64,000 nt of DNA from Bacteroidota bacterium (GTDB lineage: Bacteria; Bacteroidota; Ignavibacteria; UBA10030; SZUA-254), in assembly GCA_020056225.1 (NCBI GenBank), contig JAGVIE010000020.1, positions 6,331 to 70,330 of the forward strand, written 5' to 3'. This document shows, one piece after another, positions 5,120 through 64,000 of the stretch; position 1 is the stretch's first letter, and every line of letters starts with the position of its first letter. A model generated the notes under the pieces. It ran no database searches and had not been told where the DNA came from. It was given only the letters and a program-made list of their open reading frames with translations. A program made the translations under genes and the position numbers.

Positions 5120-5272
5120 ATTCTAATCTTAGCGAACCACCGTCCATGTGGATTGCCGTTTACCAAAAAGAGAGTTAAAAAATCCTATAAAAAGGGCTAA
5201 ATTCATTGTTGAATTATCTACAATTATTAAACTAACTATTTCTGTAGCCATTTTAATATTCCTCTGAACATT

Positions 5273-11159: not shown

Positions 11160-11163
11160 CTCA

Positions 11164-12441: not shown

Positions 12442-12460
12442 ACATTATTCCATTAGTAGT

Positions 12461-14065: not shown

Positions 14066-14114
14066 TCGAACCGGATTGAATCTGGTTTCTCCGATTACTA
14101 ATTTTTTAGATCGA

Positions 14115-41297: not shown

Positions 41298-42871
41298 CCT
41301 TTAGGCTTAAGTTTCACAATCGGCAAAATCATTTCTTCCATTGAAATCCCGCCATGCTGGAAACTATCACGGTACTGATTGAGATATTTATGATAATCAG
41401 TCGGATAAACAAAATAATAATCTTCTTTTGCAATCAGATAATTAATTGTAACGCTTCGTTTGGGGAGGCGATATTCTAATGGATTTTTGATGAAGATAGC
41501 ATGACGTTCATCGGCTTTCAGGTTGCGACCGTATTTATATCTTAGGTTAGTCGAAGCCTCGCGATCACCGATCACTTTCGTGCCGCGCAAACTTCGAATG
41601 CTTCCATGATCGGTAGTGAGAACGATTGATACATTCTTATTCCGGGAAAGCGTTCGCAGCATCGAAAGAAGTGTAGAGTGCATAAACCACGAAGATGTCA
41701 GCGAACGATATGCTGATTCATCCGGCGCAATTTCTTTCAAAATTTGTGAATCCGATCTGCCGTGAGCTAACATATCAACAAAATTGACGACGATGGCAGT
41801 AAGCCTGTTCTTCGTATACGAAGTTATATTCTGTTCGATACTGCGCCCGAATTCCGCATCTAATATTTTGACATACTTTGATTCCGGCTTGAGCTGAATT
41901 TTCCTACGTTCCAGCAAGTTATCTAAAAATTGATGCTCGTATCTGTTACGGCTGTTGTCGTCGTCTTCCCATTGTTCCCATATCTCGGGAAATCTTACTT
42001 CAAGTTCCGAGGGCCAGGCTCCGCTGAAAATAGCATTGCGGGAATAGGGGGTTGCGGTCGGGAGAATGGAATAATAATATTCACGTGAAATATCGAAGTA
42101 CTCACGCAGGACAGGTTCCATTATCATCCACTGGTCGAGGCGGAGGCAATCTATTACGAAAAAGAATACTGACTTATTTGTATCGCGAAGTTCCGGGATA
42201 AGATACCGCTCGACAATATCGGTAGAAAGCGTCGGTCTGTTTTTTTGTTCTACCCAATTCAAATAATTTCTTTCGATAAATTTCGAGAATTCCACATTGC
42301 ATTCCCTGAATTGATCGTTCAAGGTTTGCCTTAAGCCCAAACCCTGATGCTGATCCATCTCGATCGACCAATCGACAAGCTTCGAATAAATTGCGGTCCA
42401 ATCGATGAATGTAGGATTAGATTGCAGTGCGAGCGTGATCTCATTAAACTCTTTGATGTAATCGCGGGAAGCCTGCGCGCTTGCAATTTTTTTGCCTTCC
42501 AAAAATTTTTTGCATGCAAGCAATACCTGGCTCGGGTTCACAGGCTTCGTCAGATAATCGCTGATCTTAACCCCAATCGCTTCTTCCATTAATCCCTCGT
42601 CTTCGTTTTTTGTTATCATGACGATAGGCAGTTCAGGATGAATATCTTTTATTTTTGAAAGCGTTGCCAAGCCGCCCATACCTGGCATCATCTCATCTAA
42701 AAAAACAAGATCGAATGATTTTGCTTTCACCAAATCGAGAGCGTCTTCGCCGTTCGTTGCAGTTTCAACGGAATATCCTTTTTCAGAGAGCAATAAAATA
42801 TGCGAGCGAAGCAATTCAATTTCATCATCTACCCAAAGAATCCTATTTTTTGTTCCAATCATATTGTTCAC
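41294..42871 (-). CDS. porX: PorX-like response regulator (N-terminal REC domain fused to PglZ/alkaline-phosphatase-superfamily domain)
   Basis: 525 aa. The REC domain reads ILWVDDEIELLRSHILLLSEKGYSVETATNGEDALDLV...DLVFLDEMMPGMGGL, with a conserved Asp and Lys. The C-terminal ~380 aa is PglZ-like. It is adjacent to the SprA-like gene. Confidence 0.7.
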   Translation of the reverse strand: MNNMIGTKNRILWVDDEIELLRSHILLLSEKGYSVETATNGEDALDLVKAKSFDLVFLDEMMPGMGGLATLSKIKDIHPELPIVMITKNEDEGLMEEAIGVKISDYLTKPVNPSQVLLACKKFLEGKKIASAQASRDYIKEFNEITLALQSNPTFIDWTAIYSKLVDWSIEMDQHQGLGLRQTLNDQFRECNVEFSKFIERNYLNWVEQKNRPTLSTDIVERYLIPELRDTNKSVFFFVIDCLRLDQWMIMEPVLREYFDISREYYYSILPTATPYSRNAIFSGAWPSELEVRFPEIWEQWEDDDNSRNRYEHQFLDNLLERRKIQLKPESKYVKILDAEFGRSIEQNITSYTKNRLTAIVVNFVDMLAHGRSDSQILKEIAPDESAYRSLTSSWFMHSTLLSMLRTLSRNKNVSIVLTTDHGSIRSLRGTKVIGDREASTNLRYKYGRNLKADERHAIFIKNPLEYRLPKRSVTINYLIAKEDYYFVYPTDYHKYLNQYRDSFQHGGISMEEMILPIVKLKPKG

Positions 42872-48900: not shown

Positions 48901-49868
48901 TCGAATCCGGTATATTTGATCTTCAATTGATTTTCATATTCGAATGTACGCTGTGTGTTCCAATCGGCGAGGATATTCAATTTTTTGCCTATCGTACCGC
49001 TCACATTTACCTGAACATTTTGGTTAAAGTCAGGCTCGTTCCGCGAACGATCGAGTTGTGAGATCGTCGATTGATCTGATTTGGTATTGCGGAATGCGCC
49101 TCGGATATCCACTCCGCCCGATATGCGGAGGTTATTTTCTGTTCCTCCAAAAATGTTAGAGATCGGATTCGAAGGAACGGTGATCGATATATTAGTTATT
49201 GATCCGAGAAGGTTGGACAGATCGTCTTTGGTTTGTGCTTTTGTATACTGGGTTGCAATCGACCGCCAGCTTCGTTGTTTTTCGTATTCATAACGAAGAT
49301 GAATGTAATCCTCCAATTTCATCGTGGTCGGAATTTTCACATCCACGCCGTTAACCATCTCGCGCACCGTGATTGTTTCGCCTAATGTATCGAGCTGGAT
49401 ATCCCGTTTGTAAACCTGCAGGCTCGGATCGAGATAGAGTGAATAATTATCGCGTGGAAACATCTCAACCATAGGTTCGTCATACCTTTGATGAACGAAT
49501 TGCTCAACGCGCGCCGTTGAATCTTTAAAGTCCTGCCACTTTTCACCTTCTTCTTCTTTATACAGAGTGTCGGTTGAAGCGGCAATCGAATCGATCAAAG
49601 CACCTATGGAATCGCTGACGGAAGGTGCCCTACCCATACGATGCTGAATTAGAGTATCGATATTTTCTTCTTCGTCGGGAAGAGGAGTTAGCAATTGCCG
49701 GGTTGAGTCAAAAGCTGTTGTATCGGGGCGATTGATGTAGAGTGAATCAACTTGCGCAAATAAAGAGGTGTAACAAATTAAAGCCAGTGTGGTAATATAA
49801 AAGAACCGAAGAATTCTTTGGTTAGCGAAGGATGTATTAATATAATGATGCGTACTAAAACGAGTCAC
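42954..49868 (-). CDS. sprA: SprA/Sov-like T9SS outer-membrane translocon candidate
   Basis: 2304 aa with a signal-like N-terminus. Its size matches SprA/Sov (about 2400-2500 aa) and its composition is β-strand-rich and aromatic/Gly/Asn-rich. Its neighbours are porX on one side and lptFG, porV and porU on the other. Confidence 0.6.
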   Translation of the reverse strand: MTRFSTHHYINTSFANQRILRFFYITTLALICYTSLFAQVDSLYINRPDTTAFDSTRQLLTPLPDEEENIDTLIQHRMGRAPSVSDSIGALIDSIAASTDTLYKEEEGEKWQDFKDSTARVEQFVHQRYDEPMVEMFPRDNYSLYLDPSLQVYKRDIQLDTLGETITVREMVNGVDVKIPTTMKLEDYIHLRYEYEKQRSWRSIATQYTKAQTKDDLSNLLGSITNISITVPSNPISNIFGGTENNLRISGGVDIRGAFRNTKSDQSTISQLDRSRNEPDFNQNVQVNVSGTIGKKLNILADWNTQRTFEYENQLKIKYTGFDDEIIQSIEAGNVSLQTPSLVGGGQALFGIKAKLQAGPLTLTTLLSQKKGQTKELTISGGSTTIERTIQAHDYTKNHFFLDTVYAKYFAKLQESQVRILTPDIEANQILQLDVYATNVSTSSQTYTQGNYKTGRAYIDLPSINVNENYSSEQIETLSKQSGRYEAGIFVRLIPNKDYKFDTYGGYITLNSAPSDNQVIAVSYTIAGENNVNKVFGGTIAGNDTLTYLKLIKPLSLRPGYTHAWNLLLKNFYSLGIQNLKKDGFILNIWRRATVGADEDNIEGLNLLSVLGLDRFNQFNSPTPDNFFDFIPGLTIDVERGEVIFPTLRPFDSTITQYFRSNNKTAGDSLLFGDIYDTTMSAAQNSDRNKYIIKVVAAGGTTSTFTLGSMNLVEGSVHVLLNGSPLTPNVDYTIDYIIGQVVIRRPEALVPGANLQIKYEQNDLFQLASKTLIGARGELDAFPNTKLGFTIMNLNQQTLSDKVRIGEEPTNNMMLGMDFSTSANLPFLTDAIDALPLIRTKEMSTWRINGEGAYMIPDPNTKKSAVLSDHGASIAYVDDFEGIRRTIPFPITYAAWSMSSTPMDSIANQLVPDSVISYKRSRLSWYNRLPTDVTTSDIWPNRRTRAGQNQVTVLNLDFDPNHRGTYNFSPDLDSTLNRQEIGGGTGKYNNPDARRENWGGIMRYIGSMAGNVLSQNIAYIEIWMKASSDDLNDLNKGRMHIDLGRISEDVIPDGNLNSEDIIHTEINPGGIPNGVLNEGEDAGVDMFDDNQEKIIHAAFLASNSSDPDVDPNDPGGDNWTAYGDGIHLTKFNGTDQNRQDPAGLFPNTEDLNGNGNIDRSELYLEYEIPLIDSTYIVGGGENGWYQYRIPLLEATRVFGGIDASTVLEDVQYIRLWLSGFSQPVSIRVAELNLVGNQWEERIKSDSVMKVSVVNIEDNPQYSEDWDALGIAREKDRSDPNQIIEANEQSLALILNGLPKDTSREVVKRFITRPLDIFNYKSMKMFVHGDQSFTPGDAEIYLRFGTDALNFYEYRQPIYPGWELSKNEINVIFSRITAVKSARPDSMANKYYVADALNGIAGATYGVRGSPSLRQVREISIGIRCVNVPYLSGDVWVNELRLVDVDNSPGAAYRFDTQIKLADIGQVAFNYSRTDPTFHSLDQRFGNQTAAASWAVNASISIDRFLPQDWQGTSIPFAYSHSENIVKPKYLPNTDIVVEEAARRASPDVSKSMITQSQTLNIKDSYSISNFRIVLPSQAWYIRDTFSKLSFIFNYNTTRDRDPSFELRKTWGWNLRVNYGVTLPNDYFIQPFSTLFKGIFFLEDYKDWKIYYIPITSLSAGVGGSRSRSYEIPRAKNSLTRDSRNFGATKSFGFGWKFTEGGLLNLGGDYGLSLDRNLTPLDNDSVGRDFLSIMKSLFFGGQDSRYGQKVSLNLKPKIPNILDLPKYFDFSTGYSVNYSWQNTFTKGDIGKSAAFDNNISMSLGFRLKSLTDPWFDTKEETAQLQPAPMAMNKPDPARTALLNDSTSRKDSSQTAQPSESNTKKMLQQLRSIAKILIKIPLLDYETINISYSQSNRSSNPSVIGSTGFKNFWGRLPFQGSLDEYGPSRLYQLGIITDPHGTLQFAPKSKFPFLGWKTIYGPRPAGAQPTDQFSQSNNITLRTNRPLWTGATIDINWKVGWNYSRTTTIRDSAGHFVRGEPITSGSIDRSFLTLPPVLFMKVFKSNLETVGKKYEQFQKTDAPDVALTKAFEQGFEALPFLSKVLGPYVPRPNWTIRWDGIEKLVGLGSVMERLSLEHNYSSNFRRDFQSNLGKGQRTNAEKMSYGFSPLAGVNMTFKQVLKGNLSGNFRYNTTTNYDLNLTAQQPNIVSALAQEISFTLNYARRGFSFPLFGLNLSNDIEVSFTYSRTKSSRRRYDPTLLSSDQEGIPLEGNIRTVLEPRIRYVLSTRVTAALYYRYTKTAPDAAGSTIYGVTTNEAGVDIHISI

Positions 49869-50222: not shown

Positions 50223-51605
50223 ATGAAACTTTCTTTTCACATACTGAAAGCACACCTGGGACCGTTTCTGTTTGCTTTCATCACCCTCATGTTTGTTTTC
50301 CTGTTACAATTTCTGATGAGGGCAGTGAACCAGCTTGTTGGAAAAGGATTAAGCGCCTGGGTTATCGGCGAATTAATCGTGGTGAGTCTTGCGTCTATGG
50401 TCGTGCTTGCGGTACCGATGGCAGTTCTCGTCGCAACACTTATGGCGTTTGGGAAACTCTCGTCTCAAAATGAAATTACGGCAATGAAGGCGAGCGGAAT
50501 AAGTCTTTACCGTATGATGTCAACGGTTGTTTTCGCATCGCTAATTCTTACATTCCTCCTGATTGAATTTGATAATAAAATACTACCCGAAGCGAACCAT
50601 CGGTTTAAAGTTTTAATGATAGATATCCGCCGGACAAAGCCGACCTTATCGATAGTTGCCGGAATGTTTTCACAGGATCTGCCGGGGTATTCCATACTTG
50701 CCCACAAAACATTCGAACAATCGAATGACCTCGAGGGTGTTACCATCTACGATTACACAGATCCAAACACAAATGTAGTCGTGACAGGCGAACGTGGAAA
50801 AGTTTCTTTCACGCCGGATTACCGGAGGCTGATTATGGATCTCTACAACGGCGAAATTCATCGCGTAGATGTACGTGACAGAAGTACATACCGAAAGATG
50901 AAATACGTACGTCACCGTATTGTGATGAACGCAGAGGGATTCGACTTCGAGCGATCGAGCCTGAATGCTTTCGACCGTAGTGACCGTGAGCTCAGCGCAC
51001 AGGATATGCAGATAATCGTCGACAGTTTGAGAAAAGTCAACGCCGCTATGTTCAATGAAATGTTTGACGATGCAGCAGTGCCAATGGCGATGATACCGGA
51101 TCCGAGAACATCTATCAGGATGAGGGATACAACCCTTTCATCTCGACAACGCATAGTCGCCATCGCTCTTAATAAAGCCCGTATGATGCTCGGCAACATA
51201 AATCGGCAAATTCAATTCAGCGAATATAACAACCGCCGCATCGACGAATACCTGGTTGAAATCAATAAAAAATATTCTATACCGGCGGCTTGTTTTGTCT
51301 TTCTTTTCATCGGTGCACCGCTCGGTATTATTGCCCGGCGTGGAACATTCGGGGTGGCAGCGACATTCAGCCTAGGATTTTTTATTTTATATTGGGCTGC
51401 CCTCATCGGCGGGGAAAAGCTTGCCGACCGCGGGTTCCTCAGTCCATGGCTGGGCATGTGGATGGCGAATATTTTTCTTTTCATCCTGGGCGTTTATCTT
51501 ACCTTCAGGATTGGTCGTGAAGCTCCGGCAATCAATTGGTCGGCACTACGGCGGTTTATACCGAAATCTTTCCGAACACCCGAATCACAATCGGTCGACG
51601 AATAA
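50223..51605 (+). CDS. LptF/LptG-family LPS export permease (with extended periplasmic domain)
   Basis: 460 aa reading MKLSFHILKAHLGPFLFAFITLMFVFLLQFLM..., the YjgP/YjgQ topology. It has a large periplasmic β-jellyroll region and C-terminal TM helices. Confidence 0.8.
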   Translation: MKLSFHILKAHLGPFLFAFITLMFVFLLQFLMRAVNQLVGKGLSAWVIGELIVVSLASMVVLAVPMAVLVATLMAFGKLSSQNEITAMKASGISLYRMMSTVVFASLILTFLLIEFDNKILPEANHRFKVLMIDIRRTKPTLSIVAGMFSQDLPGYSILAHKTFEQSNDLEGVTIYDYTDPNTNVVVTGERGKVSFTPDYRRLIMDLYNGEIHRVDVRDRSTYRKMKYVRHRIVMNAEGFDFERSSLNAFDRSDRELSAQDMQIIVDSLRKVNAAMFNEMFDDAAVPMAMIPDPRTSIRMRDTTLSSRQRIVAIALNKARMMLGNINRQIQFSEYNNRRIDEYLVEINKKYSIPAACFVFLFIGAPLGIIARRGTFGVAATFSLGFFILYWAALIGGEKLADRGFLSPWLGMWMANIFLFILGVYLTFRIGREAPAINWSALRRFIPKSFRTPESQSVDE

Positions 51606-52694
51606 ATGATGACAAGATTAGATCGATACATAATTCGGCAATTTATTTTAACTGCTTTCTTCTCGCTTTTTGCCATCACCATTATCTTTGTCGCTGTTAA
51701 CTTAATGGACAACCTTGATGATTTCCTAGATCTCAACGCATCAGTAGGCAAGATCGCGGCATACTATTTATACTTCATACCTGAAATAATTAAACTCATG
51801 ACACCGGTGGCTATGCTTCTTTCTGCTTTATTCACAACCGGACGTCTATCCACATACAATGAGCTGACTGCGTTAAAATCCGGCGGTGTAAGTTTATACC
51901 GTTTCATGTTGCCAATGATTGTGTTTGCAGTTTTCGTAAGCGGCGTGTCAATCTATTTTAACGGATGGGTAGTGCCTTTTGCAAACAAGAAGAAAATTGA
52001 AATCGGGCGGGTTTATTTTCAAAAAGATATAGAGTATGTATCGAAGAACAACATTTTTATCCAGGACTCACGCACGCGGATTATTTCTATTAGTATCTTC
52101 GACGACACACGGAACGTTGCGATTCACGTCAGCATACAGGATTTTGATCCGGGAAATTTATCGGTTATTGCCGCGCGATACGATGCAAATGAAATGCGCT
52201 GGGATCCTGCGGCGAAACAGTGGACTTTATTTCAAGGCTTCGAACGACGATTCAATAATGACACAGAAACCCTCAGATCATTCGATTCATTATTCATCGG
52301 GGTACTTAATTTTTCACCGGATGATATCCGCAAGAAACAGGAAAAGCCGGAGGAAATGAACTACAACGATTTGAAAAAATTCATCGCCAATCAACAGCGT
52401 GCCGGACAGGATGTATCAAGATGGCTGGTCGATTATTACGGTAAGATCGCATTCCCATTCGCGAGCGTCATCGTTATTTTGTTTGGAATTCCATTCTCAT
52501 CGATCAAGAGACGCAGCGGGCTCGGAGTTGAAGCCGGCATTGCAATCGGCATATCATTTCTTTATATGATATTTTTGCAAATTAGTCAGGCTTTCGGTTA
52601 CAACGGAGATATGCACCCGCTTTTGACTGCCTGGCTTGCAAATATTATTTTCTTCATGGCAGGAATATACGTTCTTTGGCGCGTCCCAAAGTAG
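51606..52694 (+). CDS. LptF/LptG-family LPS export permease (second paralog)
   Basis: 362 aa reading MMTRLDRYIIRQFILTAFFSLFAITIIFVAVNLMDNLDDF.... Its start overlaps the upstream stop (TAAATG). Confidence 0.8.
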   Translation: MMTRLDRYIIRQFILTAFFSLFAITIIFVAVNLMDNLDDFLDLNASVGKIAAYYLYFIPEIIKLMTPVAMLLSALFTTGRLSTYNELTALKSGGVSLYRFMLPMIVFAVFVSGVSIYFNGWVVPFANKKKIEIGRVYFQKDIEYVSKNNIFIQDSRTRIISISIFDDTRNVAIHVSIQDFDPGNLSVIAARYDANEMRWDPAAKQWTLFQGFERRFNNDTETLRSFDSLFIGVLNFSPDDIRKKQEKPEEMNYNDLKKFIANQQRAGQDVSRWLVDYYGKIAFPFASVIVILFGIPFSSIKRRSGLGVEAGIAIGISFLYMIFLQISQAFGYNGDMHPLLTAWLANIIFFMAGIYVLWRVPK

Positions 52695-52772: not shown

Positions 52773-53687
52773 TTAGAATGAATATTGAAAATCTGCCCGC
52801 GCCCCGGGGAGATAACCGTACGGAGTTTTATACATTTCCATCCTTACCGATGCGTGAAGTGCTTTATTATATCGCGTCGCCGTCCATGCGGCATCAAGTG
52901 CGCTGAGAATATGATTCACGATGATAACCGATACGAATGCGTCGGCAACCTTGTAATATTTATCTGCCTGGTTAAACATTGCAAAATAATCATAATATTG
53001 CTGGTTGGGTGTCATATAATCCGCTTCGTTCGGATCTTCAGAATCCCACCCCTTGCTGAATTGCCGGTATTTTCCTATCAGTTCGTAGTATTGCTGTTCA
53101 CCAAAATATTCCAGCTTATGTGTAAAGCCTTCTGTATTCATATCGTTTTCCAATTTATTTAATTCAGCCCAGTTCAGACATGGATAAGGCGGCTTGCAAT
53201 TATCATCCGGCGGATCAGGATTGAAAAGCTTATAGTTGTCCATATTCAAAGTATTATTATAATATTTTGCATTATTGCGAAGCCACTCGGCATAACGAAC
53301 CGGGCTGTAATGTTCGTTAGCATAATTTTTGAAGAGAGTCGTCTGATCGTTTCCTTTTTTATCGTAAACCAATGCGGTGATCCATGACCCGACCTCAACA
53401 CCGAAAAATATTCCCGCTTTCACATAACTTTTAGAGTAAAACTCACCGGCGCCGGGAACCGCCAGCGAAAGTAAGCCCGCTATCCATGGAGATTTTTCTC
53501 CGTCGGGATTCGGTTCGAACTCCTGCAAGTTGAGATTCGGCTGTTGTGATATTAACTCGTTGGGTACAGACTTCGGGCTGCCGAAGAAATCAACTTTCGG
53601 GTTACCCGTGAGATATAGCTGCTGCTTTTCACCAGCCGTTACCAGAGTTGTGAAAATTAATATCATAATAAATATTTTATATCTCAT
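52773..53687 (-). CDS. Hypothetical secreted protein (last gene of a four-gene coupled operon)
   Basis: 304 aa with a signal peptide MRYKIFIMILIFTTLVTAG. A hydrophobic segment IAGLLSLAVPGAGEFY follows. The protein is Tyr/Asn/Asp-rich with no recognisable family. Confidence 0.4.
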   Translation of the reverse strand: MRYKIFIMILIFTTLVTAGEKQQLYLTGNPKVDFFGSPKSVPNELISQQPNLNLQEFEPNPDGEKSPWIAGLLSLAVPGAGEFYSKSYVKAGIFFGVEVGSWITALVYDKKGNDQTTLFKNYANEHYSPVRYAEWLRNNAKYYNNTLNMDNYKLFNPDPPDDNCKPPYPCLNWAELNKLENDMNTEGFTHKLEYFGEQQYYELIGKYRQFSKGWDSEDPNEADYMTPNQQYYDYFAMFNQADKYYKVADAFVSVIIVNHILSALDAAWTATRYNKALHASVRMEMYKTPYGYLPGARADFQYSF

Positions 53688-53704: not shown

Positions 53705-56700
53705 TTAGTCTAGGTCAAAGCCGAATAAAACACCGAAGTGAAAATTCCACTCCCTGCCGTAGGTAACCACTTTGTTAGAGTTTTCAATTGTATAATCAAA
53801 CTTATCGAAGCCGTATGTTGCATTTAAAAAGATTCTTGTAGGGAAAGCATAGTAGGAAAAAGCTTCGATTCGTAGTTCAACGCCCGCATCTTTTTTCCAT
53901 TTACGATTTTTCAATCCGCCCCCCGTCCACGCGCTTCCGGCATCGCCATAGACCGAAGCATAGAGACTGTTGAATTGCATCTGCAAAAAACGGAGATCGA
54001 TATTTTCAAGCAGCGGGAACCTGTAAGTTAGATTTGCCATCGCAAATTCATTCCCTCCGAGCGAATAGAACGAATACCCCTTCATGCCGGCGAGTCCGCC
54101 AATATAAAAATTAAAGAAATTATCCACCGGCGGACCGAAGATAGTACCACCGCGTAGATGCGCAGACAATGTATGTTTCCATGCAGGAAGTTTAATAGAT
54201 TCCCGCCATCCAATCTCCAAACGATTGAAATTTATGTGTTCATATTTTGCGACTAAAACACCGTTCTTCACATCATACTCGCCGCTTGGATTGAATTTAT
54301 TGAATTCATGTTCATATCGTAAACGGATTTTCCTTCCTACCGGATTGATTTCCGATGTCTTAGACGGCAATATCCCGTCGTATCTCAATGTGAGCGAAAG
54401 ATTATTCCCGACCAAATAAAGCTCGCTGAATGCAGGGAATAGACCTCCGGGTAAATCGAATTCTCCTATCGTTGCCGTATATCTACTATGAGCATACCGT
54501 AATTCTGCATCAAGTCGCTCATTTAGAATTTTTTGTTTGAGCGCTACATCAAACTCGATTAAATTATAAGAAATACCAAGCTTGATAGTATCGATAGGCA
54601 AAGCAATATACGAATCTGTTTTACGTGTAATGTTGTACGCTTCCAATGATAGCGCAGGCTCCAATCCGAGCTGATAAAGTCCCGGTATCTTCCCGCGATA
54701 ATCGAATGTGAAAAAGACATCACGTTCACCTTTTAAATTCATCGCGCCGCCCGCGAAGAAACCGTACCGGTCCAAGACATCGTACGAGTACGCATATAAT
54801 CCTAACTTGATAACATCGATTCCTTTATTCTTCGGATTATAATTATCTACACGTAATAACGGGACGAAAGCTAAACCCGTGGAAATGTTTTTATACGTCG
54901 TGTCCTTGAATGCCGGAATCTGAATGTCGTCATATGATCGCAGTTTTTTCCAATCCATCTGCAAATTTTCATTCTCAACCGATGCTAACGCTCCTGCATT
55001 CGCCTGAATATAATTACCGGGATTCTGGAGCGACTGCACACTGTCAAGCAGCGCTATTATAAAACCGCCGGATGCGTACGAGGCAAAAGCGATACTACCT
55101 TCATTACTAACGGTGGGCATAAATGTTCCGCCAAATACATTAGTGAGCTGAACGGAGGTTTTAGCCAATAGATCGTATTCATATATATTGAAGATGCCGG
55201 TTTTGTCGGATGAATATATTATACGATTCCCATCCGATGTAAACACGGCATTACGTTCATCCGATGAAGTATTCAAAATAAATTTTACCTCACCGCCATC
55301 AGCAGGAATAATTGTGATGTCTCGTCCGTCGCGTACCGAGTAATCAAAAATTATCGATCTGCCGTCGGGTGACCATTTAGGATTATAAACCTGCTCGCCG
55401 TTTTGGTAAGCGGTAAGCTTCTTAACATTTTTGCCGTCGATATCCGAAGTGAAAAGATTGATGGTTCCGTCACTCGCGATTACAAATGCAATTGTTTTCC
55501 CATCGGGTGATACTGCCGGAGACCCTGCACGCAAACCGTTGGTCAGGCGTGTCTCCTCATCCTGCTCGATATCGTAGACATAGAGATCGAAAACATTAGC
55601 CCAATGCGGGTTATCTTTGCTGATTTTTGAGTAATAGATTTTCTTTCCGTCCGGTGACCATGAGAGATTCGACCGTACTCCATGCATGAGGAGTTTCTCT
55701 GTCTTCGATAAAATATCATACAAATATAGAGAGGATGAACCGAAGTAATCTCCATTTTTATTGCTTATAAAAATTATTTTCTTCCCATCCGGTGAGAAAG
55801 TCGGATAGAAATTTGCAAATCCCTCACTCGCGATCATTTCACCATCGATGATATTAGTTTTTATCGGAGCAACTCTGTCTGCATAATCTTTTCGAAGAAA
55901 TTCTTTCCACTCGGCATATAATTCTTTTCCGCTCTTGCCGATAGCTTTTTCTATCGCACCATCGATTGAAACTGCCGTCAGCGATGATAGATGCTCGGAA
56001 ATTTCGCGCAGTTTGTCTTCACCGTAATGTTTCGCCAAATAGCTGACGAGTGAATATCCGGAATTGTACGATGATTCATTGCCAAGGCTTGTCTTCCCGA
56101 AAACCGACATCTCATTCCATGTGAGTAATTTATCTTCAAGCGCGTACATCCGGAGAATCATATCTCTATGAGAATCCCACGATTCATATCCGAATTCTTT
56201 CCGGTTATATTGAGCAACGCCTTCGGCAAACCATACAGGAACGACGAATCCCGAAATCGGATATGAAACGATTCCGTTGGGATAGCCATAAAGTACATCC
56301 GTACGTCTTTCAGACTCATATTGCAGCCATTGTAAATAAATGGCAGGGACCTTTCGTCCGAATTTCAATGCTGTTTGAATTTGAATGAGGTGTGTGTATT
56401 CGTGCGAGATAACGTTGCGCAGCCAATTGTGTGTTCCTCGTAAATCATAATCGAGCGCTGATGACCAAATTTCAATTTTGTTATCGAAGAAATATGTAGC
56501 TCCGTTGGAAAAATCATCATAATCTTTAATGATGAAGCTAACTCTACCTTCCGGTTTGTAGTGATAGAGTGATGTTATCGGCTCATATATTTCTTCCGCG
56601 ATCTTTGCCGTTATTCGGGCGGTGCGTTCGGTACCTGTATGGTAATGTACATAAAAATGATCGGTCTGTATTGTACGCCATTCCAATTCCAGATGATAAA

Positions 56701-56779
56701 ATTCTTCCTGTGCGGTAATTTTCCCGATGATGAGAAGAAGAAGAATTGCGGATAACCAGTGTCTCATAATATTTTTCAT
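53705..56779 (-). CDS. Large secreted/outer-membrane multidomain protein with an HEXXH-motif N-domain, PD40/TolB-like β-propeller repeats and a C-terminal Omp85-like β-barrel-type region
   Basis: 1024 aa with a signal peptide. It has an intact VISHEYTHLIQ (HExxH). There are at least five PD40-type repeats (SPDGKKIIFISNKNGD, SWSPDGKKIYYSK, SPAVSPDGKTIAFV, KWSPDGRSIIFDYS, FTSDGNRIIYSSDKTG). The C-terminal 400 aa has alternating β pattern and ends ...EWNFHFGVLFGFDLD. Confidence 0.5.
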   Translation of the reverse strand: MKNIMRHWLSAILLLLIIGKITAQEEFYHLELEWRTIQTDHFYVHYHTGTERTARITAKIAEEIYEPITSLYHYKPEGRVSFIIKDYDDFSNGATYFFDNKIEIWSSALDYDLRGTHNWLRNVISHEYTHLIQIQTALKFGRKVPAIYLQWLQYESERRTDVLYGYPNGIVSYPISGFVVPVWFAEGVAQYNRKEFGYESWDSHRDMILRMYALEDKLLTWNEMSVFGKTSLGNESSYNSGYSLVSYLAKHYGEDKLREISEHLSSLTAVSIDGAIEKAIGKSGKELYAEWKEFLRKDYADRVAPIKTNIIDGEMIASEGFANFYPTFSPDGKKIIFISNKNGDYFGSSSLYLYDILSKTEKLLMHGVRSNLSWSPDGKKIYYSKISKDNPHWANVFDLYVYDIEQDEETRLTNGLRAGSPAVSPDGKTIAFVIASDGTINLFTSDIDGKNVKKLTAYQNGEQVYNPKWSPDGRSIIFDYSVRDGRDITIIPADGGEVKFILNTSSDERNAVFTSDGNRIIYSSDKTGIFNIYEYDLLAKTSVQLTNVFGGTFMPTVSNEGSIAFASYASGGFIIALLDSVQSLQNPGNYIQANAGALASVENENLQMDWKKLRSYDDIQIPAFKDTTYKNISTGLAFVPLLRVDNYNPKNKGIDVIKLGLYAYSYDVLDRYGFFAGGAMNLKGERDVFFTFDYRGKIPGLYQLGLEPALSLEAYNITRKTDSYIALPIDTIKLGISYNLIEFDVALKQKILNERLDAELRYAHSRYTATIGEFDLPGGLFPAFSELYLVGNNLSLTLRYDGILPSKTSEINPVGRKIRLRYEHEFNKFNPSGEYDVKNGVLVAKYEHINFNRLEIGWRESIKLPAWKHTLSAHLRGGTIFGPPVDNFFNFYIGGLAGMKGYSFYSLGGNEFAMANLTYRFPLLENIDLRFLQMQFNSLYASVYGDAGSAWTGGGLKNRKWKKDAGVELRIEAFSYYAFPTRIFLNATYGFDKFDYTIENSNKVVTYGREWNFHFGVLFGFDLD

Positions 56780-57444
56780 AGGATAAACGTACCGTTCGTA
56801 ACTCTATCGTTAAATAACTTGATTGAGTCGTATATAACGCTGCGATCTGGAAGTTGTAATTTAAGTTTTATCATCGGTAATATTTTATAAACAGCTTTGA
56901 AAGTATCTGGCGAATCATAATAATCGAACTCTTTGCCGATGGGCAAATTATTGCGCTCGATTGTAAACTTTCCTCTTCTGTCCGTTGTATCAGTTCGTCT
57001 GCCATCGAGAACAACCGGCGAATATTTTACAACGGCTGTATCGATATAATACCGGATTAAATACATTCCGCTTCCAACCGGACGATACATCCAATCTAAA
57101 CCGTCCCACCAAATGCGCCGGATCGGTCCGGTACGGTGCCAGAATCCGAGAAAGATCGTACTGATGAAATCGTGCTCTAAAGTAAATACGGTTATATCCA
57201 CAACTTTCATAGAATCGGTAACGATCACTTGCTGTGTGTCGGTCGGCAGTGCGGCAACAGAATCATAATAATAATAAAGTGAAACCGCCAAATCTTGTAT
57301 CGCTATTCCGCTGGAATCTATAACAATTCCATTAAATTGATACTTAGTTGCAGAAGATGATTCAGTGTATGGCTCGATCTCCCGACATGAAAGCGTAATC
57401 ACACACAATAAACCGGCAACAACATACCGCACAAAACACCTCAC
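56776..57444 (-). CDS. Hypothetical lipoprotein
   Basis: 222 aa. The lipobox-like LLCVITLSC lies in the signal peptide. It is 4-nt coupled to both flanking genes. Confidence 0.4.
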   Translation of the reverse strand: MRCFVRYVVAGLLCVITLSCREIEPYTESSSATKYQFNGIVIDSSGIAIQDLAVSLYYYYDSVAALPTDTQQVIVTDSMKVVDITVFTLEHDFISTIFLGFWHRTGPIRRIWWDGLDWMYRPVGSGMYLIRYYIDTAVVKYSPVVLDGRRTDTTDRRGKFTIERNNLPIGKEFDYYDSPDTFKAVYKILPMIKLKLQLPDRSVIYDSIKLFNDRVTNGTFIL

Positions 57445-60400
57445 TTCACGACAGCTATCTTAATGATCGCATACCCGCTCTTGTTCGATCCGCTCGCATC
57501 GATGTGGACGAAATAAATTCCGCTTTGTATCTTCGAAACGTTCCAAGATATTTCGTTATCGAATCCGCCGTACCCCGGTCCATCGAACTCGGTTACTAAA
57601 TCGCCGGCAGGATCGAAAATCCGAATATGTACTTTAGCATCGTCACTAAGAAAATATCGTATGTAAGTCTTGAAATCGTCCGATGCGCCGACAGGGTTGG
57701 GCCAGTTGTATGCAAGTGCAGTCGGCATAAATTCGTTGCTCTTTGGGACGAGAGGGGATGTTGATTCATCTAAGCCTGTGTTTTGAGCATCGTGCATATA
57801 TTGGGACCACGGCATCATTCGCGCGGTGTCGGAAATTGTTTGTACCGTTCCAGTTCTCCACGCATAAACATACCCGTCATCCGATGCAACTGCTAAACCG
57901 ATTCCGATTCCTGTTGAATCGGCTGGTAAATAAAACGCGGCTGGTGAACCGATGCCACCAAGAACCGGGAACCCGGTTGCCATCTTTCCCGATTTATCGT
58001 ACGCAACAATTAAACCTTCCTGTGTGACAGCCACAATATCGAGCGTGCCATTACCGTCAATATCTGCAACAATTGGAGGTGACCAAATCGATTTATCTGT
58101 AGCAACTTTTATCGGAAAATTATCTAATAAATTTCCGACAGCGTTAATAGTATAAATCTTATTGCCGCTGAATACTATAATATCTTTCTGTCCATCATCA
58201 TCGATATCTGCGAGAGCTGGAGAGAGATAGATTTTACCATTTGTTGATGATGGAAATCCCGGCATGGCGTTCAAATTCTCATCGAGAAGATAAACGAGAC
58301 CATCGTCAGATGCTGTAACAATCATTTTACCGATAGTTGGTGAAATTACGCCTGCTATTACTCCGGGCCATAAATGCTTTGAAAGATTTCGGGATCTAAT
58401 CATTCCTGCTGATGTAAAAATTCCGATTTCACCATAAACACCTGTAATAACAAATTCATCCGGTTGTCTCCAAACGCAGATACCACGGATATAAGAAGAA
58501 TCGGGGAAAGCTACCGAGCTGTGTGTTTCTTGATTTCCGGAACGTTTCATCACCAGAACCAAATTCCCATTTGGAACGCAATAAAAAGAGTCTGACATAA
58601 CTATAGATGAGAAGCCACTGCTTGCGATTTCCCCCTTTGTTAAGTCATCAGCAAGACTATCGTTATTTTGATCCCTCAGCATATAAAAATTAAACCAAGT
58701 CTTTGGTGGGGAAAAGAAAAATGATTCCATACCAACAATACCAAAATCCTGAACTTGATCGGCATTGATATCGCCAACAGCAGGTTTTCCAAAAAACAAT
58801 TTTAGGGTTTGATTTGTTGTTTGAACCAAAATTCCGGATGAATTATAATATGGTTGAATAGCCATACCATTCGTTTGCCATCCTGCAATTATTCCAGGCA
58901 ACGCTGCAATTGTTCCATATGTATTTGCCGCAACCAGTATATCTTTTTGACCATCACCATTCAAGTCGGCAACACTTATAGAATTACCCGCAAATATTCT
59001 TTGAAGATTTTTCGGAAATCCCGCCAACGGTCTAATCACATCATCTCCAACCTTAATTCGCGCCTTCATTATTGAACCGCGGTATGATAATCCGGTGGTA
59101 TCCGAGCTTGTAGTATTACCAATATAAATATGGCTGTTTGCGCCGTAATTACTCCCGCTGCCGGGATATGAAGTCGGCGTAAATGCGTTAAGTTCCTTGC
59201 GAAGCAATGCGCTGTGGCCGCGAAACCAGAAATCCAAAGCCCAGCCATTCTCCGTGCCCGAACCTGATTGAAGAAGATCGTACGACTGCCCTATATCCTG
59301 CGAGCCGTCCGCCTCCATCAGATTTACACCGCGATGTTTGGCATCCGCATTCACCGAATTTGTTCCGAGGTTGGCATCAATCACCACCTCATCGATATGC
59401 CAGATAAGTAAACCACCGTCGTATAATACTTTTGTTTTACTATCAACGCCGCCCGGCAGACTCCAGTCAAATTCATCGACATCGGTGATAACACCGTACA
59501 GCGAATCAGGACGATCGGCGTTGAAACCCGTTGTATCGCGTTCCCAGCTTTTTTCGATCGATTCACCGTTGTAAATCATTTTAATTTTCACACTGTCGCG
59601 GTTTGCATCACGGTTGCGATTTTCAACGAGGAAATATTCCTTCGCGCTTATCAATACCTGGTAGATTGTGTCAACGCTATCTGTCAGCGTGACGGCGGGG
59701 AAATTATATACAGTGTCGCCGGATGAAACAATATTCGGTTGAACCCATCCCAAAAATTTCTTTTCCCATGCGGATGGTTCGGGAGGAAACGCGCCATTCC
59801 AACTGAAAATCGATTGTCCGTCCATCAATCCGAAACGACCGATCCCTGAACGCCCTGTCTTTGTATTGAATAGATCTGGCAAACCAAGATAACTTCCAAC
59901 ACTCGCGGCAAGCAAGCCATTGATGCTTAGGGGAAAAGGAACCTGCTCACGCGTTTCAGTCTCCGGTAAGATCATCGAGTTAGTAATGTTGAATGTCGTG
60001 TTCCCCATAGTTACCGGAAAACCGTTCGACCAATCTGGATTCATTTTTTGCAAACTCTTCCCGTTTAAATAAATCGATGGGATATCGAACGGCGTCGGAT
60101 CGTATCCATAAACATTCACGAGGTCGATGTCTCTGCCGGCTCCGGCATGAAATATCAGAAAAGCATTATACTGACTGTAGGAAATATCGAGCAGATGCAG
60201 TTGAACAAGCGAATCAACCGCGTGCCAGGTATCTCTCATCAAATATCCCAGTTCGATATTATTGGTGCTGGATTTTTGCGGACTGTAAAAACGCATCGGA
60301 TTGGGAACGCGTATAACGCTATCGATCAGAGTTGTATGTACCGCAAGTTTCCCGTCGGATGCTTTTCTAAAATAATTTTCTAAAAAAGTCAGGTGGCTCT

Positions 60401-60695
60401 CAAAATAAGATCTATTATGCGGCGGCGCATCGAGAGTTTTTTTTGCCGGAAGTGAAAGATCGAACTTTCCATCACCTGTTGTCCTGTCATCGGAATCTGC
60501 CGGGAACTCGACCATAACGGCAAGTACGTTGATAGAGGATTCTGGATTTGCAACCCGAAGAAGTTGCGGTATGTCCGATGGATTGTCATTTCTCTCAAGC
60601 GTCAGCGAATGATTAAAAACGGGAATCTCTTTTGTTTGTCCTTGAAGCGATACGGCAAGCAGTAACAGTAACGAAAGAGTTTTTATGGTTTTCAT
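57441..60695 (-). CDS. T9SS cargo protein with a degenerate M6 (InhA-like) metallopeptidase-like N-domain, FG-GAP/VCBS-type repeats and a C-terminal T9SS sorting domain
   Basis: 1084 aa with a signal peptide. The N-terminal VLAVMVEFPADSD is M6-like. ...LAASVGSYLGLPDLF... occupies the place of the M6 HEXXHxLGLPDEY zinc motif. Asp-rich repeats are DLNGDGQKDILV, DIDDDGQKDIIVFSG and DIDGNGTLDIVAV. The C-terminus is ...HIRIFDPAGDLV...SGIYFVHIDASG...IIKIAVVK (type-A CTD). Confidence 0.6.
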   Translation of the reverse strand: MKTIKTLSLLLLLAVSLQGQTKEIPVFNHSLTLERNDNPSDIPQLLRVANPESSINVLAVMVEFPADSDDRTTGDGKFDLSLPAKKTLDAPPHNRSYFESHLTFLENYFRKASDGKLAVHTTLIDSVIRVPNPMRFYSPQKSSTNNIELGYLMRDTWHAVDSLVQLHLLDISYSQYNAFLIFHAGAGRDIDLVNVYGYDPTPFDIPSIYLNGKSLQKMNPDWSNGFPVTMGNTTFNITNSMILPETETREQVPFPLSINGLLAASVGSYLGLPDLFNTKTGRSGIGRFGLMDGQSIFSWNGAFPPEPSAWEKKFLGWVQPNIVSSGDTVYNFPAVTLTDSVDTIYQVLISAKEYFLVENRNRDANRDSVKIKMIYNGESIEKSWERDTTGFNADRPDSLYGVITDVDEFDWSLPGGVDSKTKVLYDGGLLIWHIDEVVIDANLGTNSVNADAKHRGVNLMEADGSQDIGQSYDLLQSGSGTENGWALDFWFRGHSALLRKELNAFTPTSYPGSGSNYGANSHIYIGNTTSSDTTGLSYRGSIMKARIKVGDDVIRPLAGFPKNLQRIFAGNSISVADLNGDGQKDILVAANTYGTIAALPGIIAGWQTNGMAIQPYYNSSGILVQTTNQTLKLFFGKPAVGDINADQVQDFGIVGMESFFFSPPKTWFNFYMLRDQNNDSLADDLTKGEIASSGFSSIVMSDSFYCVPNGNLVLVMKRSGNQETHSSVAFPDSSYIRGICVWRQPDEFVITGVYGEIGIFTSAGMIRSRNLSKHLWPGVIAGVISPTIGKMIVTASDDGLVYLLDENLNAMPGFPSSTNGKIYLSPALADIDDDGQKDIIVFSGNKIYTINAVGNLLDNFPIKVATDKSIWSPPIVADIDGNGTLDIVAVTQEGLIVAYDKSGKMATGFPVLGGIGSPAAFYLPADSTGIGIGLAVASDDGYVYAWRTGTVQTISDTARMMPWSQYMHDAQNTGLDESTSPLVPKSNEFMPTALAYNWPNPVGASDDFKTYIRYFLSDDAKVHIRIFDPAGDLVTEFDGPGYGGFDNEISWNVSKIQSGIYFVHIDASGSNKSGYAIIKIAVVK

Positions 60696-60818: not shown

Positions 60819-61985
60819 TTATTCTTCTTGTTCTTCACCGCCCCAACTGATCAGTAAAGTAAAGCGGAGAGTTTCGCTAAGCGGGTGATTCTCTTCGAGA
60901 GTGGAGAGATAGCTAAAATCGAATCCATATATATCGTAGCGGATGCCGGCGCCGAAAGTCATAAACTTTCTGTTTCCATAATCAGGATGTTCGTAGAAAT
61001 ATCCCCATCTCAGGGCAAAGAGCTTCGGCTTACCGTACCAGTATTCCAATCCGCCGGCTACAGTAACCTTCTTCAATCCTCCGGATCCCCACGAACTGAA
61101 TAGTGATTTAGGAAGATTATCCACATACGATTCCTGAACAACTCTGCCGCTGTCATCTTTCACCTGCGGATAGCGTCGTACAAGCATACGGCTGAAGTCA
61201 ACTACCGCTTCCAGATTGTTGAATTCACTTTTCACGATTTTGAATCCCAATCCCAATCTCAAATTAGTCGGTAATGGATCTGCCTGTGATTTTTGGATGT
61301 AGGTTATTTTCGGACCAAGATTCGAGAGGTTCATACCGGCGCTGAAACGATCTTCGATATCACCAACAAGCGGCAGTACTATCGAGGAGGGTTTCCATAG
61401 AGTTCCGATATCGAAGCTTACAGTCGAACCGACACCTTTGATTCCTTGTCCTTGTGACGGATTAGGATCGAGAGCGCTGTAGATGAATCTGATATTCAAC
61501 CCTAAACCCAAATCGGTCGCAACCTTCGTTGAATAGCCGCCGGTTATTGCAAACTCGTATGCTTTGAATGTTCCTAAGTTATTATTCTGGTCATCGCGCC
61601 GTTCAAATGAGCCGAGGTTCAGATAGATGATGCTTCCGGAAACAGTTCCGCCCCAATCCTCGATATTCTGAGTATATGAAAAATATTCATAGAACAAATC
61701 CGAGAGATGAAATTGCGGCAACCAGTTGGAGTGAGTAATGCTTATTTCCTGACCCTTTGCAAAGGCTAGCCCACCCGGATTCCAGTACGAGGCAGATCCA
61801 TCATCACTTAAAGCAGCACCTGCTTCACCCATACCGTCGGCACGAGCGTTTGGCGCAATTAGTAAAAATGGAACTGCAGATTCGCCGCCGCCGCCCGACT
61901 GACCGAATGCCGGTTGTGCGGTAAACACAGCGAGAATCGCGAATATTATAAGAGCAGAGAGTTTCGCATATTTCTTTTGTATCAT
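60819..61985 (-). CDS. porV: PorV (LptO)-like T9SS outer-membrane shuttle β-barrel
   Basis: 388 aa with a signal peptide. The N-terminal AVPFLLIAPNARADGMGEAGAALSDDGSASYWNPGGLAF matches the PorV/FadL-like family start. It is the right size and lies immediately downstream of the porU-like gene. Confidence 0.75.
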   Translation of the reverse strand: MIQKKYAKLSALIIFAILAVFTAQPAFGQSGGGGESAVPFLLIAPNARADGMGEAGAALSDDGSASYWNPGGLAFAKGQEISITHSNWLPQFHLSDLFYEYFSYTQNIEDWGGTVSGSIIYLNLGSFERRDDQNNNLGTFKAYEFAITGGYSTKVATDLGLGLNIRFIYSALDPNPSQGQGIKGVGSTVSFDIGTLWKPSSIVLPLVGDIEDRFSAGMNLSNLGPKITYIQKSQADPLPTNLRLGLGFKIVKSEFNNLEAVVDFSRMLVRRYPQVKDDSGRVVQESYVDNLPKSLFSSWGSGGLKKVTVAGGLEYWYGKPKLFALRWGYFYEHPDYGNRKFMTFGAGIRYDIYGFDFSYLSTLEENHPLSETLRFTLLISWGGEEQEE

Positions 61986-62103: not shown

Positions 62104-64000
62104 TTATTTTAAAACGCTAAGCTTGCCGAGCGCTTCGCTTGAAAATCTTCCATCTTGTGTTTTTGCAATAATTTTGTAGAGATAAACACCGTTTGCGGGA
62201 ACATCCCCGTCACGGTCACGGCCATCCCAGGGAATACGCGCAAATTGATTTGCAATATTATTCTGTTTTATCGTTTGAATCAATCTACCGGCTACGGTGT
62301 AAATCTTAACCTGCACATCAATATTAACAACCTGATTGTGGTCGAAGGTGAAAACGGTTGCTGATGAAAATGGGTTCGGATAGTTGAATACATTGAATAT
62401 CTTTAAGCCGTCGCCCGATACAACATTAAACATCGTCTCTTCGGTGGAAGAATTATTATAAGTATCCCACGCGCGCAAACGAAGTTTGTGAGTTCCCTTT
62501 GAAAGAGTCCCCAGAGGATATTCTATGATACCTTCGGCGTACGTATCGAGTTTACTCTTATAATAATCAGAGAGATCGAAACTTTCCGGTTTTTCATCGA
62601 GCCAGGCTTCGAGCCGATGTCCGATGCCTGCCCCGGATGTATTTAGCCCGTTTGAATCGGATAGTTCGGCAATTAGTGTTGGAGATGAACCGACTACGTC
62701 GCCAGGGCGAAAACTTTTACGGTCGAGGTAGAGTTTTATTTGCGGTCCTATGGAATCAAGCGAGGCATCCGGATTTGTACCATTCACTGTAATATTTGTA
62801 AATCCTGCGCCATCAGTTGAATCATTCGAGAAATAAATCGTTATGCGGCCCGGCGAATCACTGTACGCTATATCTTTAGGCACAATAAAATCCGAACGGA
62901 GCAATCCATTCTGAATGCTGTTCTGCCCACGAAAGATAATACTGCCGGACGCCGTGTATGTCATCGTACGATTTATTTCCGGAGCGATAATTTCCGGAGC
63001 GATAAGCTTAATCGATTTGTTCGCATCATACACTACAACCTGCGCCTGCCCCGTGAAATTTATCGGGTTATCTGTTGCGGTATCCCTAACCGTTGCTTTG
63101 AAGGATGCTCGCTCAAGGGCTTTCATTCTGATACTGTCACTGCTTGGGTGATTATTGATACTATCAATCGATGCGACAAGTTTGGGAAACGATAGAACCA
63201 GCGCGGGGTCACCGAGTAAAAAATACTTCCGATCATTATCATCGTTCCGGTCTTGTTTTGTTCTGTACACGATATCTCCTATACGCTGTGACCGTAGCTT
63301 GCCGTATCGAATCGTATCGAGAAGATAATGATAAAATGTTCTATTCAAATCGAAGTTCTGATGTGCATAGACCGGTCGTGTGGCAGAGAAAACGCCGATA
63401 GCGCCTGCATTCGATAAATTTACGAGGATCTCTCCACTGCTTCTATCGCTTAACTGATCGAAGTTGGCATAATTACAGGTTGCCGCAACAAGGAAAAAAT
63501 ATTTTCCTTTGTTATGAAGCAATGGAAAATCGGTTTCCCGGACAAACACGGCCTCGTGGGTCCATAGACGAGGGTTACCGTGACCGGTAAAATTCAGAAT
63601 AAGCGTGCCCTGGTTAATCGCATTTTGAATGGCAGTGTTCACATCGGGTTTTCTTCTTCCGCTTGCCGTGAATACAGTGGGGTAATCGTATAAATAAATT
63701 TTCTTTTTCTCAAAAACCGGAGGAACCATTTTGGAGATATCATCTGCCTGCTGAGTGTGTATTAATCCGTCTGTGATATCACCTGCCTGGGGACCATCGT
63801 CGGCAACGAACGTAAAATTCAATTTCCAAGAATCTGCGATCGATTTTGTTTCGTAATCGATGATCTTATCGACCATGACATTTGCCTCTTCAGAAGTTCT
63901 TGCCGTGAGCCGCCCGATTCCCAAGTTAACCCGGCTACCGCTGAAAAATATTCCATAATCATCGTCGGTTGTATACGTGTATAATTCACGGAACGATTCT
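62104..64000 (-). CDS. porU: PorU-like T9SS C-terminal signal peptidase (C25 gingipain-like fold). The C-terminal ~630 aa is present and the 5' end is beyond the window.
   Basis: The ORF continues upstream past 64000. It has ...LILNFTGHGNPRLW...FFLVAATCNYANFD..., a caspase/C25-like His...Cys arrangement. Its own T9SS CTD is at the end (NVFNYPNPFSSATVF...KIYTVAGRLI...NGVYLYKIIAK...LSVLK). The porU-porV adjacency is conserved in T9SS organisms. Confidence 0.7.
   Translation of the reverse strand, partial: ESFRELYTYTTDDDYGIFFSGSRVNLGIGRLTARTSEEANVMVDKIIDYETKSIADSWKLNFTFVADDGPQAGDITDGLIHTQQADDISKMVPPVFEKKKIYLYDYPTVFTASGRRKPDVNTAIQNAINQGTLILNFTGHGNPRLWTHEAVFVRETDFPLLHNKGKYFFLVAATCNYANFDQLSDRSSGEILVNLSNAGAIGVFSATRPVYAHQNFDLNRTFYHYLLDTIRYGKLRSQRIGDIVYRTKQDRNDDNDRKYFLLGDPALVLSFPKLVASIDSINNHPSSDSIRMKALERASFKATVRDTATDNPINFTGQAQVVVYDANKSIKLIAPEIIAPEINRTMTYTASGSIIFRGQNSIQNGLLRSDFIVPKDIAYSDSPGRITIYFSNDSTDGAGFTNITVNGTNPDASLDSIGPQIKLYLDRKSFRPGDVVGSSPTLIAELSDSNGLNTSGAGIGHRLEAWLDEKPESFDLSDYYKSKLDTYAEGIIEYPLGTLSKGTHKLRLRAWDTYNNSSTEETMFNVVSGDGLKIFNVFNYPNPFSSATVFTFDHNQVVNIDVQVKIYTVAGRLIQTIKQNNIANQFARIPWDGRDRDGDVPANGVYLYKIIAKTQDGRFSSEALGKLSVLK

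Follow-up and report, generated by a model that had tools for sequence, protein, structure and literature searches.

When a protein begins like an M6 peptidase and lacks the residues that would bind the catalytic zinc, the question arises whether it is a protease at all and, if not, what it does at its place in the genome. This question is raised by a gene in a 64,000-nucleotide (nt) stretch of contig JAGVIE010000020.1 (GenBank assembly GCA_020056225.1, positions 6,331 to 70,330 of the forward strand) from a Bacteroidota bacterium of the Ignavibacteria; the whole stretch is called the window here. The gene lies on the minus strand at 57441..60695, with its stop codon at 57441-57443, and its open reading frame (ORF) encodes 1084 amino acids; the product is referred to as M6i. 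The explanation considered probable, with moderate confidence, is that M6i is a catalytically dead protein of the M6 lineage combined with an FG-GAP propeller and a type-A type IX secretion system (T9SS) C-terminal domain (CTD), and that it acts as a non-catalytic surface binding protein coupled to the T9SS proteins PorV and PorU.

The zinc site of M6i and its conservation

A sequence-only reading of the window had pointed to an M6-like start and several later M6-like blocks, and all of these (VLAVMVEFPADSD, GLPD, LMDGQSIFSWNG and SAWEKKFLGW) are present in the 1084-residue ORF. Window positions 59868-59912 on the minus strand translate to LAASVGSYLGLPDLF, which corresponds to residues 262-276. 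Reference M6 proteins were obtained by tblastn of M6i residues 51-380 against plasmids; the matches were Bacillus genes annotated as M6 family metalloproteases and an unannotated Phyllobacterium ORF. Both references pass the cutoff of 110.8 bits of the generic M6 domain model TIGR03296, with 210.1 bits for the Bacillus and 216.6 bits for the Phyllobacterium protein. BLASTP of the N-terminal domain (N-domain) of M6i gave E=2e-16 against the Phyllobacterium protein, with GLLAASVGSYLGLPDLFNT opposite GVFSHEFGHFLGLPDLYDT, and E=2e-10 against the Bacillus protein, with the same stretch opposite GIPAHELGHSFGLPDLY. In the wider register, GLLAASVGSYLGLPDLF stands opposite GIPAHELGHSFGLPDLY (Bacillus) and GVFSHEFGHFLGLPDLY (Phyllobacterium). 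An 18-sequence alignment of the N-domain, compared profile to profile with the Phyllobacterium protein, gave 98.8% probability over 342 columns and spanned the whole M6 domain, from the VLAVMVEF strand to past WHIDE. The proposed relationship of the N-domain to M6 peptidases was thus borne out.

The alignments to the two true M6 proteins place A264, S265 and S268 of M6i at the first His, the Glu and the second His of HEXXH; both histidines and the catalytic glutamate are replaced, as first read. The extended motif HEXXHXXGXXD, which goes back to structural work on InhA and is present in both references, includes a Gly and an Asp that is the third zinc ligand. These two residues, G271 (position 8) and D274 (position 11), are retained in M6i. 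The dead zinc site, located by pairwise alignments and column statistics, therefore reads ASVGSYLGLPD (residues 264-274; 59874..59906, minus strand) where HEXXHXXGXXD is expected. A helix at residues 258-269 in the AlphaFold2 (AF2) model is the counterpart of the active-site helix, and the LM within residues 278-320 aligns with the LM of the true M6 proteins and is presumed to be the Met-turn. M6i retains most M6 motifs, among them the Gly and third-ligand Asp, the LM that comes next, and the blocks ENR and WHIDE.

No intact HEXXH was found relocated elsewhere in the window protein; in one orthologue HEMRH occurs at residue 127, and it was rejected as unrelated to the site. A search with the regular expression HExxHxxGxxD found no active M6 paralogue nearby in the window or in any of the fetched loci. 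Judged from its residues, with the site reading ASVGS, M6i is not an M6 peptidase in the enzymatic sense, and the loss of His, Glu and His makes zinc-dependent catalysis very unlikely.

A dead M6-like family of this kind is already known and curated. M6i scores 808.2 bits (E=1.1e-242) against the NCBIfam equivalog NF052323 (T9SSA_dep_M6i; cutoff 600), which bears the name 'T9SS-dependent M6-like inactivated metalloprotease'. It has both the full-length score and the inactivated M6-like domain by which the family is recognised and shows no difference from it at the protein level, and an Ignavibacterium protein (P0195) is already listed under this name by NCBI. The name also agrees with the earlier suggestion that the protein is a putative non-catalytic pseudo-protease or binding module. 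The remark that such a protein would be unusual was overstated, as the family is curated and occurs in at least 531 species-representative genomes. The labels of these loci, at least 531 with an M6i relative, are mostly Ignavibacteria or 'Bacteroidota' metagenome-assembled genomes (MAGs), with some KSB1, Chlorobiota and Melioribacter; the gene is present in MAGs labelled Ignavibacterium and Melioribacter, and the closest relatives of the window protein are Ignavibacteria-type MAGs.

Against the generic model TIGR03296, M6i itself gives E=7.7e-19 and 68.7 bits, which is under the cutoff, and Pfam Peptidase_M6 did not match it. Sequence searches of the PDB with the whole protein, a 55-sequence profile and a 141-residue core returned FG-GAP lectins or noise only, and no InhA. 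With the M6 peptidases (InhA of B. thuringiensis/anthracis, PDB 4YU5, and the TIGR03296 proteins) M6i shares catalytic-domain homology and fold. It differs from them in having Ala/Ser/Ser for the His/Glu/His of HEXXH and in an extra insertion of ~55 residues, and the FG-GAP propeller and T9SS CTD replace the accessory domains of InhA.

The database search with M6i gave 3265 matches, and the best 120 of these, with 42-87% identity and nearly all full length, were analysed. HExxH is present at the site in none of the 120, for which the consensus is NGLL[AC]A[SN]xG[SN][HYF]LGLPDLF[DN]T. It is likewise absent from all 81 species-level loci retained for site statistics and gene-order analysis, the closest approach being HQxxH in one KSB1 locus (L039). 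The check on orthologues that had been proposed with the sequence-only reading thus found HEXXH lacking in 120/120 and 81/81 cases; in orthologues of Ignavibacteria type the loss of these residues is fixed. Over the 81 loci, Ala occupies position 1 in 60, and Ser occupies positions 2 and 5 in 54 and 61, respectively; Gly8 is found in 79 and Asp11 in 75. Position 6 is Tyr or Phe in most loci and His (GSHLGLPD) in 17/81.

Conservation, calculated per 20 residues in a 55-sequence alignment, is highest at residues 261-320 (0.85-0.91) and only 0.40 in part A of the propeller. By the same measure and by invariant columns, the most conserved stretch of M6i is residues 278-320 (TKTGRSGIGRFGLMDGQSIFSWNGAFPPEPSAWEKKFLGWVQP; 59736..59864, minus strand). 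Because conservation is strong, and HExxH was seen in 0/120 orthologues, a pseudogene, chance or sequencing error was rejected as the origin of the altered site. The site is dead for catalysis yet strongly selected, as is characteristic of pseudoenzymes that have retained some binding role. Within this stretch, residues 278-297 (TKTGRSGIGRFGLMDGQSIF, nt ~59805-59864) form the most conserved loop and yet the worst modelled one, with pLDDT <50 in both models; the loop may require a ligand, metal or partner to fold.

Alternatively, M6i might still be an enzyme, one that has acquired a different catalytic or metal site. Asp274 is invariant, as are many other His, Asp and Glu residues of the orthologues (H183, D189, E245, H433 and D435 among them), and a His stands at position 6 in 17/81 loci. 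However, that position is Tyr or Phe in most orthologues, and active M6 proteins have equivalents of the other invariant residues (HAG, WHIDE), which are hence ancestral rather than part of a new site. Moreover, the site was lost along several routes in the relatives from other phyla described below, among them routes in which Asp11 is gone too, and this argues against a conserved replacement metal site. An acquired activity of this type is considered highly improbable.

Gene order at porV and relatives in other phyla

Gene order was examined by tblastn of the window proteins against the 81 loci, with counts made over the loci with enough flank (66, 61 or 57, depending on the gene). In 65/66 loci the gene directly upstream of M6i encodes a PorV homologue, at a median distance of ~60 nt, and this adjacency holds down to ~31% identity. 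PorU is found upstream of PorV in 57/61 loci, and a homologue of a protein with Peptidase_MA_2 and PD40 matches (MA_2/PD40 protein) lies downstream of M6i in 44/57. The conserved row is porU-porV-M6i-(small gene)-MA_2/PD40 protein, which in the window stands beside sprA and porX; in one locus with predicted genes the same row is followed by DUF5683, lptFG and sprA. The sole locus of the 66 without porV before the M6i homologue is L071, from a Chloroherpetonaceae MAG, which could be a rearrangement or misassembly.

In the window, porV (60819..61985, minus strand) is directly upstream of M6i with a gap of 123 nt and matches NF033710 (T9SS_OM_PorV) at 279.6 bits (cutoff 250). It is preceded by porU, the T9SS sortase gene (62104..64000, minus strand; NF033707, 623.9 bits, cutoff 420), of which the C-terminal ~630 residues lie within the window. 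This part matches positions 496-1094 of the NF033707 profile, and its frame is open to the window end, which cuts the gene. The genomic linkage of M6i with PorU/PorV-family genes is thus conserved, and its near-invariant slot after porV suggests a functional tie of M6i to the sorting machinery.

The KSB1 homologue of locus L039 also follows porV; it scores 654.6 bits against NF052323, above the cutoff, and its site reads HQFAHQLGLPS. Relatives retrieved with the N-domain of this homologue as query carry the labels KSB1, Calditrichota, Marinimicrobia/Fidelibacterota, Zixibacteria and Latescibacteria, and further ones are labelled Balneolaceae, Rhodothermales, Eisenbacteria and WOR-3. When 240 collected relatives were aligned to a hidden Markov model of the N-domain, intact HExxHxxGxxD was found in 9, with source labels that include Zixibacteria, Eisenbacteria and WOR-3. 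The remaining relatives are dead in lineage-specific ways, namely ASxxS..D, ANxxS..D, HQxxH..S, [ILV]MxxH..N, LMxxF..P and others.

The HEXXH-intact relatives (e.g. P0209, P0215 and P0240) keep HEFGHQLGLxD and may be active proteases, as far as their motifs tell. Unlike M6i, they fall under the NF052323 cutoff. Their scores against this model (172-261 bits) nonetheless exceed those against the generic TIGR03296 (~80 bits), and they are therefore assigned to the same subfamily as M6i. Those with a complete gene have the same build of M6 domain, FG-GAP repeats and CTD; in L084 the M6 part is followed by FG-GAP and CTD parts whose reading frames are shifted.

In all three readable contigs with an intact relative, which are of Zixibacteria type, the genes immediately before it are porU and a long porV. 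A PorV-family gene also directly precedes two further dead relatives, from Fidelibacterota and from another lineage, and is thus immediately upstream in 5/5 of the more distant contexts examined. An MA_2 protein follows the M6i homologue also in L085 and L089. The porV slot is held by HEXXH-intact and dead relatives alike, and the pairing of PorV with an M6-like protein is therefore older than the loss of catalysis. As far as the literature was searched, neither the linkage to porV in several phyla nor the presence of HEXXH-intact relatives in the same slot has been reported.

The PorV proteins upstream of the intact relatives have about twice the normal length (772-859 amino acids; L084 7128-9707, L086 7665-9983 and L087 3767-6347). 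In Pfam they match PorV at either end and, faintly, Reg_prop in the middle, a split that suggests a domain inserted in the barrel protein.

Domains of M6i and neighbouring genes

The AF2 model of full-length M6i has a pLDDT of 81.3 and a pTM of 0.82. A putative signal peptide, read from the sequence with an inferred cleavage site, occupies about residues 1-20 (MKTIKTLSLLLLLAVSLQGQ; 60636..60695, minus strand), and the model places an N-terminal helix at residues 2-17. The M6 (InhA-like, metzincin-type) peptidase-fold domain spans residues ~47-538 (59082..60557, minus strand), and its ~55-residue insertion relative to a minimal M6 domain lies at about residues 366-427. An FG-GAP/VCBS-type beta-propeller region follows at residues ~549-955 (57831..59051, minus strand), as indicated by Pfam, profile, Foldseek and the strand list. 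FG-GAP_3 (49.7 bits) and FG-GAP (30.8 bits) pass the Pfam cutoffs, the profile matches the fungal FG-GAP lectins PVL with E=6e-8, and the strand pattern of the model points to about seven blades. Foldseek matches of the full-length model are propellers, which swamp the list.

The C-terminal T9SS type-A sorting domain occupies residues ~991-1084 (57444..57725, minus strand). This tail falls within the full-length NF052323 model, is a predicted beta-sandwich with beta-strands at high pLDDT, and has a conservation of 0.72 in the 55-sequence alignment. M6i thus combines a type-A CTD with a T9SS-bearing genome (PorU, PorV, SprA and PorX in the window). The signal peptide, FG-GAP repeats, type-A tail and porU/porV/sprA/porX neighbours together are consistent with the predicted T9SS export of a protein with FG-GAP/VCBS-like repeats.

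The genes for M6i, PorU, PorV, SprA and PorX belong to a T9SS super-cluster on the minus strand of the window, in which porX is located at 41294-42871 (718.9 bits) and sov/sprA at 42954-49868 (1039 bits). The divergent lptF/lptG genes for a lipopolysaccharide (LPS) export permease lie on the plus strand at 50223-52694, between sprA and the M6i operon, and are also found inside the T9SS cluster of locus L001. Their placement deserves attention in view of the LPS anchoring of T9SS cargo in Porphyromonas. The M6i operon ends with a gene for a DUF5683 protein (52773-53687, minus strand), which keeps its downstream position in most loci and is present likewise in L084 and L085.

Two genes separate the DUF5683 gene from M6i, one for a putative lipoprotein of 222 amino acids (56776-57444, minus strand) and one for the 1024-residue MA_2/PD40 protein (53705-56779, minus strand), both identified as ORFs. 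In the latter, Pfam shows a Peptidase_MA_2 match with intact HEYTH and PD40/TolB-like propeller repeats; the protein has a long uncharacterised C-terminal part and is below the cutoff of every NCBIfam family. A gene for a predicted live metalloprotease thus stands two genes from the dead M6i. Start and stop codons overlap among the M6i, 222-residue and 1024-residue genes, and the last is likely to be translationally coupled to the M6i operon. A promoter and terminator scan was at chance expectation and has no bearing on the operon either way.

This neighbour might be the partner of M6i, the dead M6 domain binding substrates or the 1024-residue protein itself and modulating a live protease, as other pseudoproteases do. 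The overlapping codons, the intact HEYTH with its Peptidase_MA_2 match, and the position after M6i in 44/57 loci as well as in L085 and L089 would fit such a role. However, the MA_2 protein is absent from the slot in 13/57 loci, whereas porV is absent in only 1/66, and its interaction with M6i is conjecture. This alternative is regarded as unlikely.

Further along the minus strand, a tetratricopeptide repeat protein of 1015 amino acids (33331-36378) matches the T9SS lipoprotein PorW/SprE at 136 bits, under the cutoff of 250, and is a possible divergent PorW; its YbgF/BamD-like repeats are strong. An exopolysaccharide cluster at the left end of the window (2064-15146, minus strand), with genes for a polyprenyl glycosylphosphotransferase and an EpsE-like export protein, is unrelated to M6i.

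Possible role of M6i in sorting and attachment

Under the preferred explanation, M6i would be exported by Sec and then pass through SprA by means of its CTD, ending on the cell surface, where its role would be binding without catalysis. A ligand, either peptide or glycan, would be bound in what was once the substrate cleft, on which purifying selection is strong, and the propeller would offer another surface for binding. The nearly constant place of the gene directly downstream of porV, in several phyla, suggests that the function of M6i is coupled to the PorV/PorU sorting and attachment step; by analogy, the protein might be held on PorV through its CTD. Such coupling is considered more likely than the role of an unrelated passenger adhesin. 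In the earlier description of M6i as a T9SS cargo the export part stands, but 'cargo' alone probably undersells a protein that has kept the porV slot in 65/66 loci.

The analogy is with Porphyromonas, in which PorU and PorZ retain the CTD and are bound to PorV-family barrels, PorU to PorV and PorZ to PorQ. PorZ of the P. gingivalis attachment complex (PDB 5M11) is a non-enzymatic surface protein with propellers and a CTD beside PorU/PorV-family proteins, and the predicted features of M6i are alike. It is the best bacterial Foldseek match of the full-length M6i model (rank 7, E=2.7e-12), a likeness of generic propeller and sandwich with TM scores of only 0.14/0.19. Unlike M6i, PorZ has two propellers and no peptidase-like domain. 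Against the PorZ model NF052228, M6i gives 18.6 bits (cutoff 260) with the tail alone matching, and homology to PorZ was rejected. PorZ is described as delivering A-LPS to PorU (PMC8545088). A PorZ-like adaptor role for M6i is possible by analogy.

The main competing explanation is that M6i is plain T9SS cargo, a surface adhesin or binding protein whose slot after porV would result from its being co-expressed as an abundant or essential passenger. Several observations favour it. The NCBIfam name, with its 'T9SS-dependent', is in the style used for passenger enzymes; an ordinary type-A CTD and FG-GAP repeats are typical of adhesins and lectins; and beyond its tail M6i has no homology to a known T9SS component (18.6 against 260 bits for PorZ). 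Other points weigh against the preferred explanation. Adjacency of genes is in itself no proof of physical or functional coupling, and abundant cargo genes can sit in secretion operons. The CTD of M6i is barely under the generic cutoffs (Por_Secre_tail 26.9 against 27 in Pfam; TIGR04183 22.2 against 23), though homologous tails of its relatives pass these models with 41.8 and 34.8 bits. The low pLDDT (<50) at residues 278-297 makes the modelled shape of the putative binding cleft unreliable, the model of the N-domain alone is poor (pLDDT 56), and Foldseek found no significant match for it. No paper on the NF052323 family was found in the literature, and the loss of His, Glu and His does not formally exclude some other activity of M6i. 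On the other side, the position after porV in 65/66 loci, kept down to ~31% identity, is much tighter than would be expected of an ordinary passenger, and it recurs in other phyla and on both sides of the divide between active and dead forms. Plain cargo is accordingly seen as possible, at clearly lower confidence than a binding protein coupled to PorV/PorU.

A broader form of the coupling explanation is put forward tentatively and is more doubtful than likely. The M6-like protein might be a lineage-wide T9SS sorting and attachment accessory in the non-Bacteroidia phyla of the Fibrobacterota-Chlorobiota-Bacteroidota (FCB) group (Ignavibacteria, KSB1, Fidelibacterota, Zixibacteria and possibly others). 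PorV would hold it by the CTD, and it would present cargo or an anchor molecule to PorU as PorZ/PorQ do in Porphyromonas. Its ancestor would have been an active M6 protease in the porU-porV slot, where genomes of Zixibacteria type still have intact HEXXH; catalysis was then apparently lost more than once and by different changes (ASxxS, HQxxH, [ILV]MxxH, LMxxF), and the cleft was kept.

The dead protease by itself re-discovers a curated family and adds little; the gene-order context is the part that could matter. What is known of T9SS biology comes almost wholly from Porphyromonas and Flavobacterium, and no studies of cargo sorting or anchoring in Ignavibacteria, KSB1, Fidelibacterota or Zixibacteria were found in the literature searched. 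With its place after porV in virtually all genomes examined, M6i stands out as a tangible candidate for a T9SS accessory that is lineage-specific, and its most conserved part is the former active-site cleft. Furthermore, the presence of HEXXH-intact and dead forms in the same slot offers a clean natural example of the passage from protease to pseudoenzyme with the genomic partner kept.

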